This document shows, one piece after another, positions 7,691-37,431 of a stretch of 39,467 nt of DNA (positions are counted from its first letter, which is position 1; each line of letters starts with the position of its first letter). The DNA is taken from the UHGV virus genome UHGV-0285531. One strand, written 5' to 3'. This DNA comes from a virus. Both the position numbers and the translations under genes were made by a program. The notes beneath the pieces are model-generated. The model ran no database searches. It was given only the letters and a program-made list of their open reading frames with translations, and was not told the origin of the DNA.

Positions 7691-10600
7691 ATGTCCACGA
7701 TTACACAATTCCCTTCAGGAAACACTCAGTACAGGATTGAGTTCGACTACCTCGCCAGAACGTTTATTGTTGTTACGCTGGTGAATAGCTCTAACCCTAC
7801 CCTGAACCGTGTACTGGAAGTTGGTCGAGATTACCGATTCCTTAATCCAACGATGATTGAGATGTTGGTTGACCAATCAGGTTTTGACATCGTTCGTATT
7901 CACCGTCAGACTGGAACTGACTTAGTGGTAGACTTCAGGAATGGCTCAGTGTTGACAGCTAATGACCTGACCAATTCAGAGCTTCAGGCTATCCATATTG
8001 CAGAAGAAGGTCGAGACCAAACGGTTGACTTAGCGAAGGAATATGCCGATGCTGCTAGTAGCTCTGCTGGCAACGCTAAGGATAGCGAGGACGAAGCACG
8101 ACGAATCGCTGAGAGTATCAGGGAAGCTGGTCTAATTGGTTATATTACCCGTCGCTCCTTCGAGAAAGGCTACAACGTTACAACATGGAGCGAGGTCCTG
8201 CTATGGGAAGAGGATGGTGATTATTACCGCTGGGATGGTACGCTTCCAAAGAACGTTCCTGCTGGTTCAACTCCTGAAACTTCCGGTGGGATTGGATTAG
8301 GTGCGTGGGTTAGTGTTGGTGATGCTGCTTTAAGAAGTCAGATTTCAAATCCTGAAGGGGCAATACTCTACCCTGAATTACATAGAGCACGCTGGCTTGA
8401 TGAAAAAGATGTTCGTGGTTGGGGTGCTAAAGGTGATGGTGTCACTGATGATACAGCAGCGTTAACGAGCGCATTAAACGACATACCGGTTGGACAAAAG
8501 ATTAATGGCAATGGGAAGACATATAAGGTCACATCCCTGCCTGACATTAGTCGCTTCATCAACACTCGTTTCGTTTATGAGCGCATTCCCGGACAACCTC
8601 TTTATTATGCCTCTGAGGAATTTGTTCAGGGTGAGTTGTTCAAAATAACGGACACCCCTTATTACAATGCGTGGCCTCAGGATAAAGCGTTCGTATATGA
8701 TAATGTGATATATGCACCTTACATGGGTAGTGATCGTCATGGTGTTAGTCGTCTGCATGTATCATGGGTTAAGTCTGGTGATGATGGTCAAACATGGTCT
8801 ACTCCAGAGTGGTTAACTGATCTGCATCCAGATTACCCTACAGTGAACTATCACTGTATGAGTATGGGTGTATGTCGCAACCGTCTGTTTGCCATGATTG
8901 AAACACGTACTTTAGCCAAGAACGCATTAACCAATTGTGCATTGTGGGATCGCCCCATGTCTCGTAGCCTGCATCTTACTGGTGGTATCACTAAAGCTGC
9001 AAATCAGCAATATGCAACAATACATGTACCAGACCACGGACTATTCGTGGGTGATTTTGTTAACTTCTCTAATTCTGCGGTAACAGGTGTCTCCGGTGAT
9101 ATGACTGTTGCAACCGTAATAGATAAGGACAACTTCACGGTTCTTACACCCAACCAGCAGACTTCAGATTTGAATAACGCTGGAAAGAATTGGCACATGG
9201 GTACTTCTTTCCATAAGTCTCCATGGCGTAAGACAGACCTTGGTCTAATCCCTCGCGTCACAGAGGTGCATAGCTTTGCTACTATTGATAACAATGGCTT
9301 TGTTATGGGTTATCATCAAGGCGATGTAGCTCCACGCGAAGTTGGACTTTTCTATTTCCCTGACGCTTTCAATAGCCCATCTAGTTATGTTCGTCGTCAG
9401 ATACCATCTGAGTATGAACCAGATGCGTCAGAGCCGTGCATCAAGTACTATGACGGTGCATTATACCTTATCACTCGTGGCACTCGTGGGGATAGGCTAG
9501 GTAGCTCTTTGCATCGTAGTAGAGACATAGGTCAGACTTGGGAGTCACTGAGATTTCCACATAATGTTCATCATACTACATTACCTTTTGCTAAAGTAGG
9601 GGATGACCTTATTATGTTTGGTTCAGAACGTGCAGAAAATGAATGGGAAGCAGGTGCACCAGATGATCGTTACAAGGCATCTTATCCTCGCACCTTCTAT
9701 GCGCGCTTGAATGTAAACAATTGGAATGCAGATGATATTGAATGGGTTAACATCACTGACCAGATTTATCAGGGCGGAATAGTTAACTCAGGTGTAGGTG
9801 TTGGTTCGGTAGTTGTGAAGGATAATTACATCTACTACATGTTTGGTGGAGAGGACCATTTTAACCCATGGACCTATGGAGATAACTCAGCGAAGGACCC
9901 ATTCAAAGCGGATGGTCATCCCTCAGATTTGTATTGCTACAAAATGAAGATTGGCCCAAGCAATCATGTTTCCCGTGATTTCAGGTATGGTGCTGTACCT
10001 AACAGAGCTGTTCCCGTGTTTTTTGATACGAATGGGATTCGCACTGTTCCTGCGCCAATGGAATTTACAGGGGATTTGGGTTTAGGTCATGTGACTATTA
10101 GAGCCAGCACCAGTAGTAACATTCGCTCTGAAGTTTTAATGGAAGGTGAATATGGGTTTATCGGGAAATCTATACCGACTGATAACCCGGCAGGGCAGCG
10201 CACCATATTTTGCGGAGGCGACAGTACCAGTTCTTCTTCTGGTGCACAGATTACGCTTTATGGTGCAAATAATACCGACTCAAGGCGAATAGTTTACAAT
10301 GGTGCTGAGCATCTGTTCCAGACTGCTGACGTTAAGCCTTATAACGATAACGTCACTGCGCTTGGTGGGCCTAGCAACCGTTTCACCACTGCATACCTCG
10401 GAAGTAACCCTATTGTTACTTCTAACGGGGAGAGGAAAACAGAGCCGGTAGTTTTTGATGATGCTTTCCTTGATGCCTGGGGTGACGTTCACTACATCAT
10501 GTACCAGTGGTTAGATGCTGTTCAACTGAAAGGCAATGATGCTCGTATTCACTTCGGGGTTATTGCTCAGCAAATTCGTGATGTATTCATTGCACATGGT

Positions 10601-10885
10601 CTGATGGATGAAAACAGTACGAATTGTCGTTATGCTGTTCTGTGCTATGACAAGTATCCACGGATGACCGATACGGTATTTTCGCACAATGAAATCGTTG
10701 AACACACTGACGAGGAGGGTAATGTCACTACTACGGAAGAACCTGTATACACCGAGGTGGTTATTCACGAAGAGGGTGAGGAGTGGGGTGTTCGGCCTGA
10801 CGGAATTTTCTTTGCTGAAGCCGCTTATCAGAGAAGAAAACTGGAAAGAATCGAAGCCAGACTTTCTGCTCTTGAACAGAAGTAA
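7691..10885 (+). CDS. 17: tail fibre / tailspike with endo-N-acetylneuraminidase (endosialidase, K1 capsule depolymerase) and C-terminal intramolecular chaperone domain
   Basis: 1064 aa; N-terminal ~150 aa is T7 gp17-like adaptor ([25 protein letters not shown]...); remainder matches, by recollection, the phage K1F endosialidase including the C-terminal auto-cleaved chaperone segment; ATG 7691 after AGGAGG. Confidence 0.88.
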   Translation: [1064 protein letters not shown]

Positions 10886-34380: not shown

Positions 34381-35265
34381 ATGTCTCAATCAGTTTATGC
34401 CGAGTTCGGCGTTAGCTCTAATGCAATCACTGGTTCCGTTGAGGACCTGAACGAACACCAAAAGTCTATGCTTGAACAGGACGTAGCTGTTCGTGATGGC
34501 GACGACGCTATTACCTTCAAGCAACTGGAAGCCGAAAACGAAGAGGCTACCGAAGAAGACGAGAACGTCGAAGAGATTGAAGGTGAAGAAGACCACGAGT
34601 CAGATGACGAAGAGTCTGAGACCGATGGTGAGCAGCCTGAGTTCATCGAACTGGGTGATGCACCGAAAGAGCTGACTGAAAGTGTCACCGCTCTGGATGA
34701 AAACGAAGCTGCATTCGACGACATGGTGTCTTCTGCTGTAGAAGCTGGCAAGGTCACTGCTGATGAAATTACCGCTATCAAGGCTGAATACGCCAAGGAC
34801 GGTAAGCTGTCTGACGCATCCTACGCTAAGTTGCAGGAAGCAGGTTACACCAAGCGTTTCGTAGATTCGTTTGTCCGTGGTCAGGAAGCTCTTGCTGAAC
34901 AGTATGCTGCTGGTGTGGTTCGCTACGCTGGTGGTGCTGAACAGTTTAATCGCATCCTGTCACACCTTGAGTCCAATGACCCGTCAACTCGTGAAGCACT
35001 GGAAGCTGCTATCGTTCGTAAGGACATTGCTACTACCAAGGCTCTGCTGAATCTGGCTGGCAAGACTCTGGGTAAAGCTGTGGGTGTTAAACCTCAGCGT
35101 ACCATCACCACTCAGGCTAAACCTGTGGTCGCACCTAAGGCTCCTCAGACAGAAGCATTCAGCTCCAAGGCTGACATGATTAAGGCTATGAGTGACCCGC
35201 GATACCTGCGTGACGCTAAGTACACGATGGAAGTCCGCGCTAAGGTAGCTGCCTCAAGCCTGTAG
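34381..35265 (+). CDS. 9: capsid assembly (scaffolding) protein (T7 gp9-like)
   Basis: Track ORF 34339-35265; preferred ATG 34381 (AAAGGAGAATG upstream); highly acidic, Glu/Asp-rich centre. Confidence 0.8.
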   Translation: MSQSVYAEFGVSSNAITGSVEDLNEHQKSMLEQDVAVRDGDDAITFKQLEAENEEATEEDENVEEIEGEEDHESDDEESETDGEQPEFIELGDAPKELTESVTALDENEAAFDDMVSSAVEAGKVTADEITAIKAEYAKDGKLSDASYAKLQEAGYTKRFVDSFVRGQEALAEQYAAGVVRYAGGAEQFNRILSHLESNDPSTREALEAAIVRKDIATTKALLNLAGKTLGKAVGVKPQRTITTQAKPVVAPKAPQTEAFSSKADMIKAMSDPRYLRDAKYTMEVRAKVAASSL

Positions 35266-35266
35266 G

Positions 35267-35289
35267 ACTAAACTATCACTATAGGGAGA
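35267..35289 (+). promoter_or_regulatory. phage RNAP promoter (phi10-like), full consensus incl. GGGAGA, +1 G at 35284
   Basis: ctaaactatcactatagggagac; transcript starts with GGGAGACC...GGUUUCCC 5' hairpin (35284-35315). Confidence 0.85.
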
Positions 35290-35391
35290 CCAAGAGATAG
35301 ACTAAAGGTTTCCCTATTACTTCAGTCCATACGGATTGGGCATACAGTAAGTAATAAACTTTATCTTTCAATTGAATAGGAGAATTATCAT

Positions 35392-36441
35392 ATGGCAAAC
35401 GTTCCGGGTCAGAAAATTGGTACAGACCAAGGTAAAGGTAAATCCAGTTCCGACGCTCTGGCGTTGTTCCTGAAGGTATTTGCTGGTGAAGTCCTGACCG
35501 CATTCACTCGCCGCTCTGTAACTGCTGACAAGCATATTGTCCGTACCATTCAGAACGGTAAGTCTGCTCAGTTCCCGGTCATGGGTCGCACATCTGGTGT
35601 GTATCTGGCTCCTGGTGAGCGACTGTCCGATAAGCGTAAAGGTATCAAACATACCGAGAAAGTGATTACCATTGATGGTCTGCTGACTGCCGATGTGATG
35701 ATTTTCGACATTGAAGACGCGATGAACCACTACGACGTGGCTGGCGAGTATTCCAACCAGTTGGGCGAAGCTCTGGCTATCGCTGCTGATGGTGCGGTGC
35801 TGGCTGAAATGGCGATCCTGTGTAACCTCCCGGCTGCATCCAACGAGAACATCGCTGGTCTGGGTACTGCGTCCGTCCTACAAGTTGGTAAGAAAGCTGA
35901 CCTCGACACCCCGGCTAAACTGGGCGAAGCAATCATCGGTCAACTGACCATTGCTCGTGCGAAGCTGACCTCCAACTACGTTCCTGCTGGCGACCGTTAC
36001 TTCTACACCACGCCAGACAACTACTCTGCAATCCTCGCGGCTCTGATGCCGAACGCTGCTAACTATGCTGCGCTGATTGACCCAGAGACTGGTAACATCC
36101 GTAACGTGATGGGCTTCGTTGTTGTTGAAGTTCCGCATCTGGTACAGGGTGGTGCTGGTGAGACCCGTGGTGCTGATGGTGTCACTATCGCTTCCGGCCA
36201 GAAACACGCATTCCCGGCAACTGCTACTGGCGACGTTAAAGTTGCTATGGACAACGTTGTGGGTCTGTTCTCTCACCGTTCTGCTGTGGGTACTGTGAAG
36301 CTGCGTGACTTGGCGCTGGAACGTGACCGTGACGTCGATGCTCAGGGCGACCTGATTGTTGGTAAATACGCTATGGGTCACGGCGGTCTGCGTCCAGAAG
36401 CGGCAGGCGCACTGGTTTTCACAGCGGCGTCAGCGGGTTAA
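35392..36441 (+). CDS. 10A: major capsid protein (T7 gp10A-like)
   Basis: 349 aa; RBS AGGAGA; recollected identity to T7 gp10A. Confidence 0.95.
   Translation: MANVPGQKIGTDQGKGKSSSDALALFLKVFAGEVLTAFTRRSVTADKHIVRTIQNGKSAQFPVMGRTSGVYLAPGERLSDKRKGIKHTEKVITIDGLLTADVMIFDIEDAMNHYDVAGEYSNQLGEALAIAADGAVLAEMAILCNLPAASNENIAGLGTASVLQVGKKADLDTPAKLGEAIIGQLTIARAKLTSNYVPAGDRYFYTTPDNYSAILAALMPNAANYAALIDPETGNIRNVMGFVVVEVPHLVQGGAGETRGADGVTIASGQKHAFPATATGDVKVAMDNVVGLFSHRSAVGTVKLRDLALERDRDVDAQGDLIVGKYAMGHGGLRPEAAGALVFTAASAG
36414..36420 (+). other. candidate -1 programmed ribosomal frameshift site (G GUU UUC) near end of gp10A
   Basis: Heptamer GGTTTTC 7 codons before gp10A stop; the -1 frame is open from here to 36704. 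Confidence 0.55.
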
Positions 36442-36704
36442 CGACCTTTAAGGCCCTCTCTACAGAGGGTCCTACCTTAGAGACATACAGTTCTACGGTG
36501 GGAACCAGCTTGAAGGTTGACTTCCCTGAGCTTTCAGACGTGACCGATTGGTCGCTGCTTGAGGTGACTACGCCTGATGGTGTTAGCTACTCCCGTAGAA
36601 CCAACAGTCTCTACTTCAAGGCCACCTCTGGCGTGGAAGGTCTGGTGATTGTTGGGTATGACGGTTCGCCTGTGCGTTCCTTCAACGTATCTTTCACAAA
36701 CTAA
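36420..36704 (+). CDS. 10B: C-terminal extension of minor capsid protein (gp10B-like) reached by -1 frameshift
   Basis: -1 frame has no stop between 36414 and TAA 36702-36704; track shows only the 3' part as ORF 36498-36704; T7 makes gp10B the same way. Confidence 0.55.
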   Translation, partial: HSGVSGLTTFKALSTEGPTLETYSSTVGTSLKVDFPELSDVTDWSLLEVTTPDGVSYSRRTNSLYFKATSGVEGLVIVGYDGSPVRSFNVSFTN

Positions 36705-36710
36705 TTGAAA

Positions 36711-36748
36711 CCCCTTGGGTACCTTCGGGTGCTTGAGGGGTTTTTTTT
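36711..36748 (+). terminator. Tphi-like transcription terminator
   Basis: CCCCUUGGGUACC-UUCG-GGUGCUUGAGGGG followed by U8; closely resembles the T7 Tphi sequence as I recall it. Confidence 0.85.
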
Positions 36749-36763
36749 GCTTAAGGAGGGACT

Positions 36764-36853
36764 ATGTTCCTTATTTACACAGGGTTAGCACTATTCGTCT
36801 TATTCTGGGCGTACCTGCTGTCCAGCTCGCCGTCTAGCCCCTATGACCATTAA
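36764..36853 (+). CDS. hypothetical 29-aa hydrophobic micro-protein between Tphi and gp11
   Basis: ATG 36764 after TTAAGGAGGG; MFLIYTGLALFVLFWAYLLSSSPSSPYDH; not in track (short). Confidence 0.3.
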   Translation: MFLIYTGLALFVLFWAYLLSSSPSSPYDH

Positions 36854-36864
36854 GGAGTAAACCT

Positions 36865-37431
36865 ATGGCTCAGTACATTCCACTGAATGCTAACGATGAC
36901 TTAGACGCCATCAACGATATGTTAGCAGCTATCGGTGAACCAGCAGTCCTACAGCTTGACGAGGGGAACGCTGACGTATCGAACGCTCAACGTATCCTGC
37001 ATCGTGTCAATCGTCAGGTCCAAGCTAAAGGATGGAACTTTAACATTAATGAAGCTGCTGTCCTGACACCTGATGTCCAAGACAACAGGATTCGATTCTT
37101 GCCGTCATACCTTCGTGTAATGACCGCTGGGGCCACCAGCTACTACAGCAACATGGGTGGATACCTGTACGACCTGTCCACTCAGTCCACCACTTTCACC
37201 GACCCTATCACGGTAGAGCTTGTGGAGATGAAGCCATTCTCCGAGATGCCTGTGGTCTTCAGGGACTACATCGTCACTAAAGCTAGCCGTGAGTTCAACG
37301 CTAAGTTCTTCGGTAGCCCAGAGTCTGAACTGTACCTTCGTGAGCAGGAAGCAGAACTCTATCAGCAGGTCATGGAATACGAGATGGATACTGGTCGCTA
37401 CAACATGATGTCCGACATTGGGAGGGACTAA
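36865..37431 (+). CDS. 11: tail tubular protein A (T7 gp11-like)
   Basis: 188 aa; RBS TAAGGAG; position between capsid and gp12. Confidence 0.85.
   Translation: MAQYIPLNANDDLDAINDMLAAIGEPAVLQLDEGNADVSNAQRILHRVNRQVQAKGWNFNINEAAVLTPDVQDNRIRFLPSYLRVMTAGATSYYSNMGGYLYDLSTQSTTFTDPITVELVEMKPFSEMPVVFRDYIVTKASREFNAKFFGSPESELYLREQEAELYQQVMEYEMDTGRYNMMSDIGRD

Follow-up and report, generated by a model that had tools for sequence, protein, structure and literature searches.

Gene 10 of the T7-like podophage analyzed here most probably encodes two capsid proteins on one mRNA, the second of which, a 437-aa gp10B, would be produced by a programmed -1 frameshift of the T7 type; we put the probability of this reading at about 0.88. 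The window, that is, the whole stretch of 39,467 nucleotides under analysis, is a circularly permuted genome of the K1F group (Kayfunavirus) with gene 10 at 35.4 kb, and its gene 10 region shows 99.4% identity with Escherichia phage SR04 and 94-97% identity with dozens of Kayfunavirus records. The site is orthologous to a classic recoding site for which close relatives already carry an annotation, and it involves no new mechanism; the only fresh elements are the uncharacterized Ig-like cargo and the cassette-like behavior of the slot in which it resides.

Under the proposed mechanism, the majority of ribosomes would read G GUU UUC through and terminate at the stop codon at 36439-36441, yielding the 349-aa 10A, and a minority would slip back one base with tRNA-Val and tRNA-Phe on GUU UUC, after which the Phe tRNA would re-pair with UUU and the Val tRNA would pair partly with GGU. 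The slipped ribosomes would then go on with CAC AGC GGC for 94 codons to the UAA at 36702-36704. The resulting 45.9-kDa subunit would co-assemble with 10A, such that a flexible linker of ~17 residues and an Ig-like domain of 77 residues would be displayed on the head exterior. Tandem or A-site tRNA slippage on GUU UUC is the most likely mechanism. By analogy with experiments on T7, Kvp1 and K1F, the shift would be ribosomal, would operate at a level of roughly 10%, and its product would enter the capsid. Judging from the predicted fold and from other phage Ig-like domains, the displayed domain could perhaps bind weakly to surface carbohydrates or mucus.

Table 1. Features of the gene 10 region, in window coordinates
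Feature	Position	Strand	Basis
Phage RNA polymerase promoter core CACTATAGGGAGA	35277..35289	+	One exact match in the window
Gene 10A, major capsid protein, 349 aa, 36.4 kDa, 0 frame	35392..36441	+	ORF list; Pfam; phrog
Slippery heptamer G GTT TTC (Val342-Phe343), next base A	36414..36420	+	Frame reading; comparison
-1 frame extension, 94 codons plus TAA	36420..36704	+	Frame reading; dN/dS; phrog_7473, E 3e-37
Linker, extension residues 1-17, predicted disordered	36420..36470	+	AlphaFold2 pLDDT <50 for most of residues 1-16
Branched RNA structure, candidate stimulator, predicted	36442..36519	+	MFE -39.2 kcal/mol, z -2.9 to -3.2
Ig-like beta-sandwich, extension residues 18-94 (77 residues), seven strands, predicted	36471..36701	+	AlphaFold2; Foldseek
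Tphi-type intrinsic terminator, 17-pair hairpin and T-run	36707..36748	+	Homologous to T7 Tphi

The slip site and the open -1 frame

The product of gene 10A belongs to the Gp10A-like family (Pfam PF21703, E 2.4e-105; phrog_267) and is a T7-type major capsid protein of the HK97 fold. The gene shares 94-99% DNA identity with Kayfunavirus capsid genes, the C-terminal 60 aa of the protein can be aligned with the capsid proteins of T7 and K1F, and the promoter core CACTATAGGGAGA occupies the same position relative to gene 10 as the phi10 promoter of T7. Elsewhere in the window, the tail-spike position is taken by an ORF of 1064 aa (7691-10885), which is the size of the K1F endosialidase.

Given the final codons of gene 10A (CTG GTT TTC ACA GCG GCG TCA GCG GGT TAA), the GGTTTTC at 36414-36420 is phased as G GTT TTC, with six sense codons between the heptamer and the stop. 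The earlier note, made from the sequence, had pointed to this heptamer near the gp10A stop, to about 94 further codons in the -1 frame, and to the end of that frame just before Tphi, and all three statements hold: the -1 frame comprises exactly 94 sense codons, and 2 bases separate its stop from the terminator hairpin. It was also right in that the ORF list presents the extension solely as a 68-aa ORF, namely, the GTG ORF at 36498-36704. The -1 frame is open for another 17 codons 5' of the slip site. The heptamer does not conform to the canonical X XXY YYZ pattern, given that G GU is not XXX, and is non-canonical in the same manner as the T7 site. The predicted gp10B consists of 343 + 94 = 437 aa, with the predicted fusion junction YAMGHGGLRPEAAGALVF followed by HSGVSGLTTFK; the tryptic peptide spanning this junction, YAMGHGGLRPEAAGALVFHSGVSGLTTFK, would have an average mass of 2932 Da, and another peptide expected from the extension is ALSTEGPTLETYSSTVGTSLK.

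Within the 22 long plus-strand ORFs of the genome, an open -1 frame of at least 94 codons is encountered at 0.7% of the positions. Among 9,380 codons, there are just two instances of in-frame GTT TTC, and in the second (24281) the -1 frame closes after 6 codons. The combination of the slip site with the long -1 frame is no chance arrangement.

Downstream of the heptamer, no stable hairpin or pseudoknot was found at the usual spacing of 5-9 nt (z of 0.3 for +1..+45), and in the window, K1F, KP32, Ninurta and PP47 alike, the +1..+45 stretch is no more stable than shuffled sequences; T7 alone among the phages compared has a predicted hairpin, at +14. The candidate branched structure of the present phage begins 21 nt 3' of the heptamer (+22). 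Stable hairpins or branched structures with z about -3 are predicted to begin at +20 to +28 in several lineages, among them KP32 and Ninurta (+28..+56), but they differ in sequence, and their spacing from the heptamer is too long for a classical stimulator. The terminator, located 290 nt 3' of the slip site, contains CCCC at 36711-36714, and that of Dickeya phage Ninurta has CCC only. The Rfam search of positions 35000-37200 (E <=1) detected no family, the two sub-threshold matches (to a snoRNA and, on the terminator, to NsiR1) being due to chance. Between Tphi and gene 11, there is an additional ORF of 29 codons, MFLIYTGLALFVLFWAYLLSSSPSSPYDH (36764-36853, plus strand), with a strong Shine-Dalgarno sequence, AAGGAGGG (-12.6 kcal/mol), the product of which resembles a small membrane peptide; some relatives share this ORF (as a hypothetical protein in phi1_146013), and it is absent from Peacock and K1F.

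Selection on the extension and its route of expression

A tblastn search with the 94-aa extension retrieved 455 phage records, with the matching sequence always directly after the capsid gene, from phages of Escherichia, Salmonella, Enterobacter, Kosakonia, Klebsiella, Pectobacterium and Dickeya; identity to the present extension is ~45% in the Klebsiella KP32 group and ~41% in the Dickeya phages. In a codon alignment of 22 loci, the Nei-Gojobori dN/dS values for the -1 frame range from 0.08 to 0.45 (14 pairs, down to 41% amino-acid identity), and those for the other two frames over the same columns from about 0.4 to 3.3. As judged from these substitution patterns, the extension evolves under purifying selection in the -1 frame only. 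The constraint is apparent already in codons 8-26 of the extension (pN/pS 0.0-0.5, with one pair of nine at 0.77), which lie past the 10A stop and upstream of the first possible start, a GTG. There is no ATG in the -1 frame of the extension in this window, and the Shine-Dalgarno pairing of the GTG and TTG candidates is -1.9 to -6.1 kcal/mol, compared with -7.3 to -12.6 kcal/mol for real genes nearby; by these sequence measures, the extension has no credible start of its own. The start chosen by gene callers varies from phage to phage. Given the constraint in the -1 frame upstream of the candidate starts, the weakness or absence of these starts, and the variation among the called ones, ribosomes have to reach the extension at or near the end of 10A.

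The same evidence makes it very unlikely that the extension is a separate small protein that is not fused to the capsid protein, for example, one of 68 aa translated from the GTG at 36498. Such a protein is what many GenBank records imply by listing an ORF of 54-87 aa on its own, as 'hypothetical' or 'minor capsid', and in LS2-like phages, where a -1 frame ATG overlaps with the stop codon of 10A (GGT TAA TGA CC), termination-reinitiation is possible. In the window, however, the frame lacks this ATG, and a start at 36498 would eliminate strand 1 of the predicted fold (residues 21-26); furthermore, a separate protein leaves unexplained why GTT TTC tracks the presence of the cassette (see below). 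In the Escherichia virus LS2 group itself (L131; proteins P0001-P0003), the TAATG overlap leads into an 87-aa ORF, and GGTTTTC is kept too. The annotation of the extension in public databases is uneven. In the Kayfunavirus Peacock (GenBank MK903279), the gene 10 region of which is 94% identical to that of the window, the same joined CDS with the same end points is annotated and is labeled as a minor capsid protein resulting from -1 frameshifting, so the frameshift mechanism was already known. In most of the public records, among them that of SR04, the closest relative, the extension stands apart as a 'hypothetical protein'. The proteomic data for the near-identical phages SH3 and SH4 were obtained with a database that lacked the extension and hence are uninformative on it.

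The GTT TTC codon pair does not vary among T7, K1F, KP32, PP47, Ninurta and the rest of the extension-bearing loci examined, and the capsid C-terminus ...RPEAAGA(L/V)VF together with GTT TTC is common to T7, K1F and 22 other loci. The codons neighboring GTT TTC vary synonymously among the loci, the first base of the heptamer can be G, A or C, and the heptamer is followed by A in 100 of 109 contexts. We searched IMG/VR for capsid C-termini using a degenerate pattern in which any Val and Phe codons were accepted, which yielded 104 non-redundant contexts, and defined a cassette as at least 100 nt between the 10A stop and the terminator. A cassette is present in 79 of the 80 contexts with GTT TT[CT] and in 4 of the 24 with GTC, GTG or GTA (Fisher p 1.7e-16, with contexts counted irrespective of shared ancestry), that is, in the sequences surveyed the slippery codon is linked to the cassette. 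Three of the four exceptions (L041, L044 and L058) have a Big_2 extension with GTG TTY ACA AAG at the site, and two other loci with the same Big_2 cargo (L040 and L114) read GTT TTC ACA GCG. It looks as though, in the three exceptions, the T7-type slip site was swapped for an A AAG site of the T3 type, one codon further 3', and this apparently compensatory pattern of GTT TTC and ACA AAG is hard to explain without selection for slippage. In phages with GTC TTC, the terminator begins within ~35-50 nt of the capsid stop, and the apparent '-1 ORF' is nothing but a translation of the terminator. Where there is an extension, its ORF invariably comes to an end shortly before the terminator; in 75 of 79 loci, the gap from its end to the final G/C-rich stem segment and T-run of the terminator is 32-43 nt.

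These comparisons also bear on two other explanations of the open frame. A change of frame in the RNA, with the polymerase slipping on the T run so that a base is lost or gained in some transcripts, appears even less likely than a separate protein. There is a T4 run at the site, phage polymerases can stutter on homopolymers, and sequence analysis alone cannot tell this route from the ribosomal one; nevertheless, four T fall well short of the run length at which such slippage becomes appreciable, and re-pairing of tRNA is consistent both with the exact codon phase required of GTT TTC and with the switch to ACA AAG in some phages. A review that covers both routes lists T7 gene 10 as ribosomal (PMC5009743). 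The least probable explanation is that the -1 frame is an unexpressed leftover or a chance spacer before the terminator. In its favor are the absence of the extension from many T7-like phages (the GTC TTC group) and the truncation of the extension in L013/L034 and L053 (see below), from which it follows that the extension is not essential to the lineage, but a leftover would hardly combine purifying selection confined to the -1 frame with conservation of the domain across the 455 records from phages of such hosts as Escherichia, Klebsiella, Pectobacterium and Dickeya, a confident compact fold model, and an open frame with a chance frequency of 0.7% per position.

The Ig-like domain and the diversity of cargos

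The frameshift, as favored here, would append to the capsid protein a linker, the first 7 codons of which overlap the 10A tail, and a compact domain with the conserved motifs DVTDWS, RRTNSLYFK and YDGS. In two PP47-like loci (L016 and L020), the linkers differ within ~10 residues (PVAMVTIAES vs. SMTMEAATEA) by nine non-synonymous and no synonymous substitutions, which, from the sequences, may reflect local hypervariability or a short double frameshift. For residues 18-94, AlphaFold2 run with 24 homologues predicts a seven-strand beta-sandwich with a pLDDT of about 90, and this modeled two-sheet sandwich of approximately seven strands matches solved Ig-like domains. When solved structures were searched with Foldseek, the C-terminal Ig-like domain of lambda gpV ranked first (2L04; E 1.3e-3, TM 0.55-0.57), and the sole strong match in BFVD is a homologue of the extension itself, the 'minor capsid protein' of Pectobacterium phage PP81.

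At the sequence level, a Pfam scan of the extension (E <=1) yielded no acceptable family and no Big_2 (PF02368), and the lone match, to Peptidase_M14 at E 0.14, was dismissed. A PDB sequence search with the extension profile returned nothing, and kinship to the Big_2 extension of T3 was ruled out (hhalign probability 0.6%). An exhaustive profile search retrieved small phage ORFs along with multi-repeat surface proteins of the He_PIG, BACON and Big_1 types, with E values that, for the latter, are sums over 4-7 weak stretches; hhalign comparison with single He_PIG (PF05345) or BACON (PF13004) repeats gave probabilities of 74-76%, and a direct Pfam scan of the domain was negative. The extension domain is an Ig-like domain of an uncharacterized family (phrog_7473), possibly a distant relative of He_PIG and BACON. 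In L013/L034 (IMGVR_UViG_2974604219_000001), 53 residues of the extension are intact and are then fused into the frame of a small hydrophobic ORF, and Tphi is missing, which suggests either that phages can lose the Ig-like domain and the terminator or that there is an error in the assembly; given that half of the domain is lost in this case, the domain may be dispensable.

Downstream of the same G GTT TTC, the stretch between the slip site and the terminator holds different cargos in different T7-like phages: a short T7/K1F tail of 44-59 aa with the motif LTPxQKAARTRAAN; the Ig-like domain with the DVTDWS motif, in extensions of 87-103 aa that include the one described here; or a Big_2 domain (L040, L114 and L065). 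In some T7-like phages, the slot is empty. There are also two unusual loci. In L082 (IMGVR_UViG_3300034127_000003), the -1 frame downstream of G GTT TTT A is open for >220 codons and starts with a Big_2-like domain followed by further sequence, which would make an unusually long capsid extension. In L053 (IMGVR_UViG_2974615076_000001), GGTTTTC and a 162-nt spacer precede the terminator and the -1 frame stops after 15 codons; either decay of a K1F-type extension or an error in sequencing may account for this. On a tentative note, we suggest that the stretch from the slip site to Tphi could be an exchangeable 'display slot' that accommodates at least three unrelated cargos or none, in which case Val is encoded by the non-slippery GTC, and that the DVTDWS domain could represent an undescribed Ig-like family, distantly akin to He_PIG and BACON, that confers weak adherence to glycans or mucus on podophages of Escherichia, Klebsiella, Pectobacterium and Dickeya.

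With regard to annotation, the correct product of the extension is the 437-aa capsid fusion rather than a separate hypothetical protein. The K1F slot already displays foreign proteins, and the natural Ig-like cargo with its conserved flanks suggests where and how payloads could be inserted; a possible role of the domain in adhesion would bear on phage therapy. In recoding research, the co-occurrence of GTT TTC and the cassette, together with the ACA AAG replacement, amounts to a clean natural experiment.

Comparison with known frameshift and display systems

Ig-like domains, such as the C-terminal domain of lambda gpV and Hoc-like decorations, are found on other phage structural proteins, in some cases via frameshifting; the domain described here differs from these in that it matches no Pfam family and shows weak profile similarity to He_PIG and BACON. 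The gp10B of T3 likewise carries an Ig-like capsid extension of ~90 aa that is reached via a -1 shift (PMC5009743). However, T3 slips at C CCA AAG rather than at G GTT TTC, its domain is Big_2, and its -1 stop is located about 160 nt before Tphi.

The closest mechanistic parallel is the 10A/10B pair of T7, which is encoded by a homologous capsid gene with an identical G GTT TTC A at the corresponding Val-Phe codons, a stop in the 0 frame within the next few codons, and a -1 ORF that ends just before the homologous CCCC-bearing Tphi; the joined 10B CDS is annotated in the T7 record. In T7 gene 10, G_GU U_UUC is a ribosomal frameshift site with tRNA re-pairing, to which the CCCC in Tphi, >200 nt downstream, contributes (PMC5009743), and about 10% of translations yield 10B (PMC1635266). 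The distance between the heptamer and the 10A stop is 3 codons in T7, 4 in K1F and 6 in the present phage, and that between the site and the terminator is 179 nt in T7 vs. 290 nt here; the predicted hairpin at +14 in T7 has no counterpart before +22 in the present phage. The T7 extension is 56 aa long, is not Ig-like and is unrelated in sequence to the present one. Thus, the likeness to the T7 gene 10 frameshift proposed in the earlier note stands with respect to the site, the homologous gene and selection, but the description of the product as 'gp10B-like' does not extend to its sequence.

Among other phages with a gp10B, peptides of 10B were detected in Kvp1 by mass spectrometry, with the shift assigned to TTTTCA (PMC2579914). 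In K1F, the type species of Kayfunavirus, the genus of the closest relatives of the present phage, a g10b::gfp fusion enters virions, which fluoresce (PMC6277420), and the gene10b slot is in use for display (PMC13370021). The K1F site has the same heptamer, with 3 differences in the 39 nt upstream of it, and the terminator hairpin differs at one base, 36722 (A in the window, G in K1F). The K1F extension, in contrast, is a T7-type tail of 48 codons (QPSGVSTFSQ...AARTRAAN...), such that one cassette stands in place of the other between the slip site and 'AAC TAA TTGAAACCCC', a swap flanked on both sides by sequence that the two phages share.
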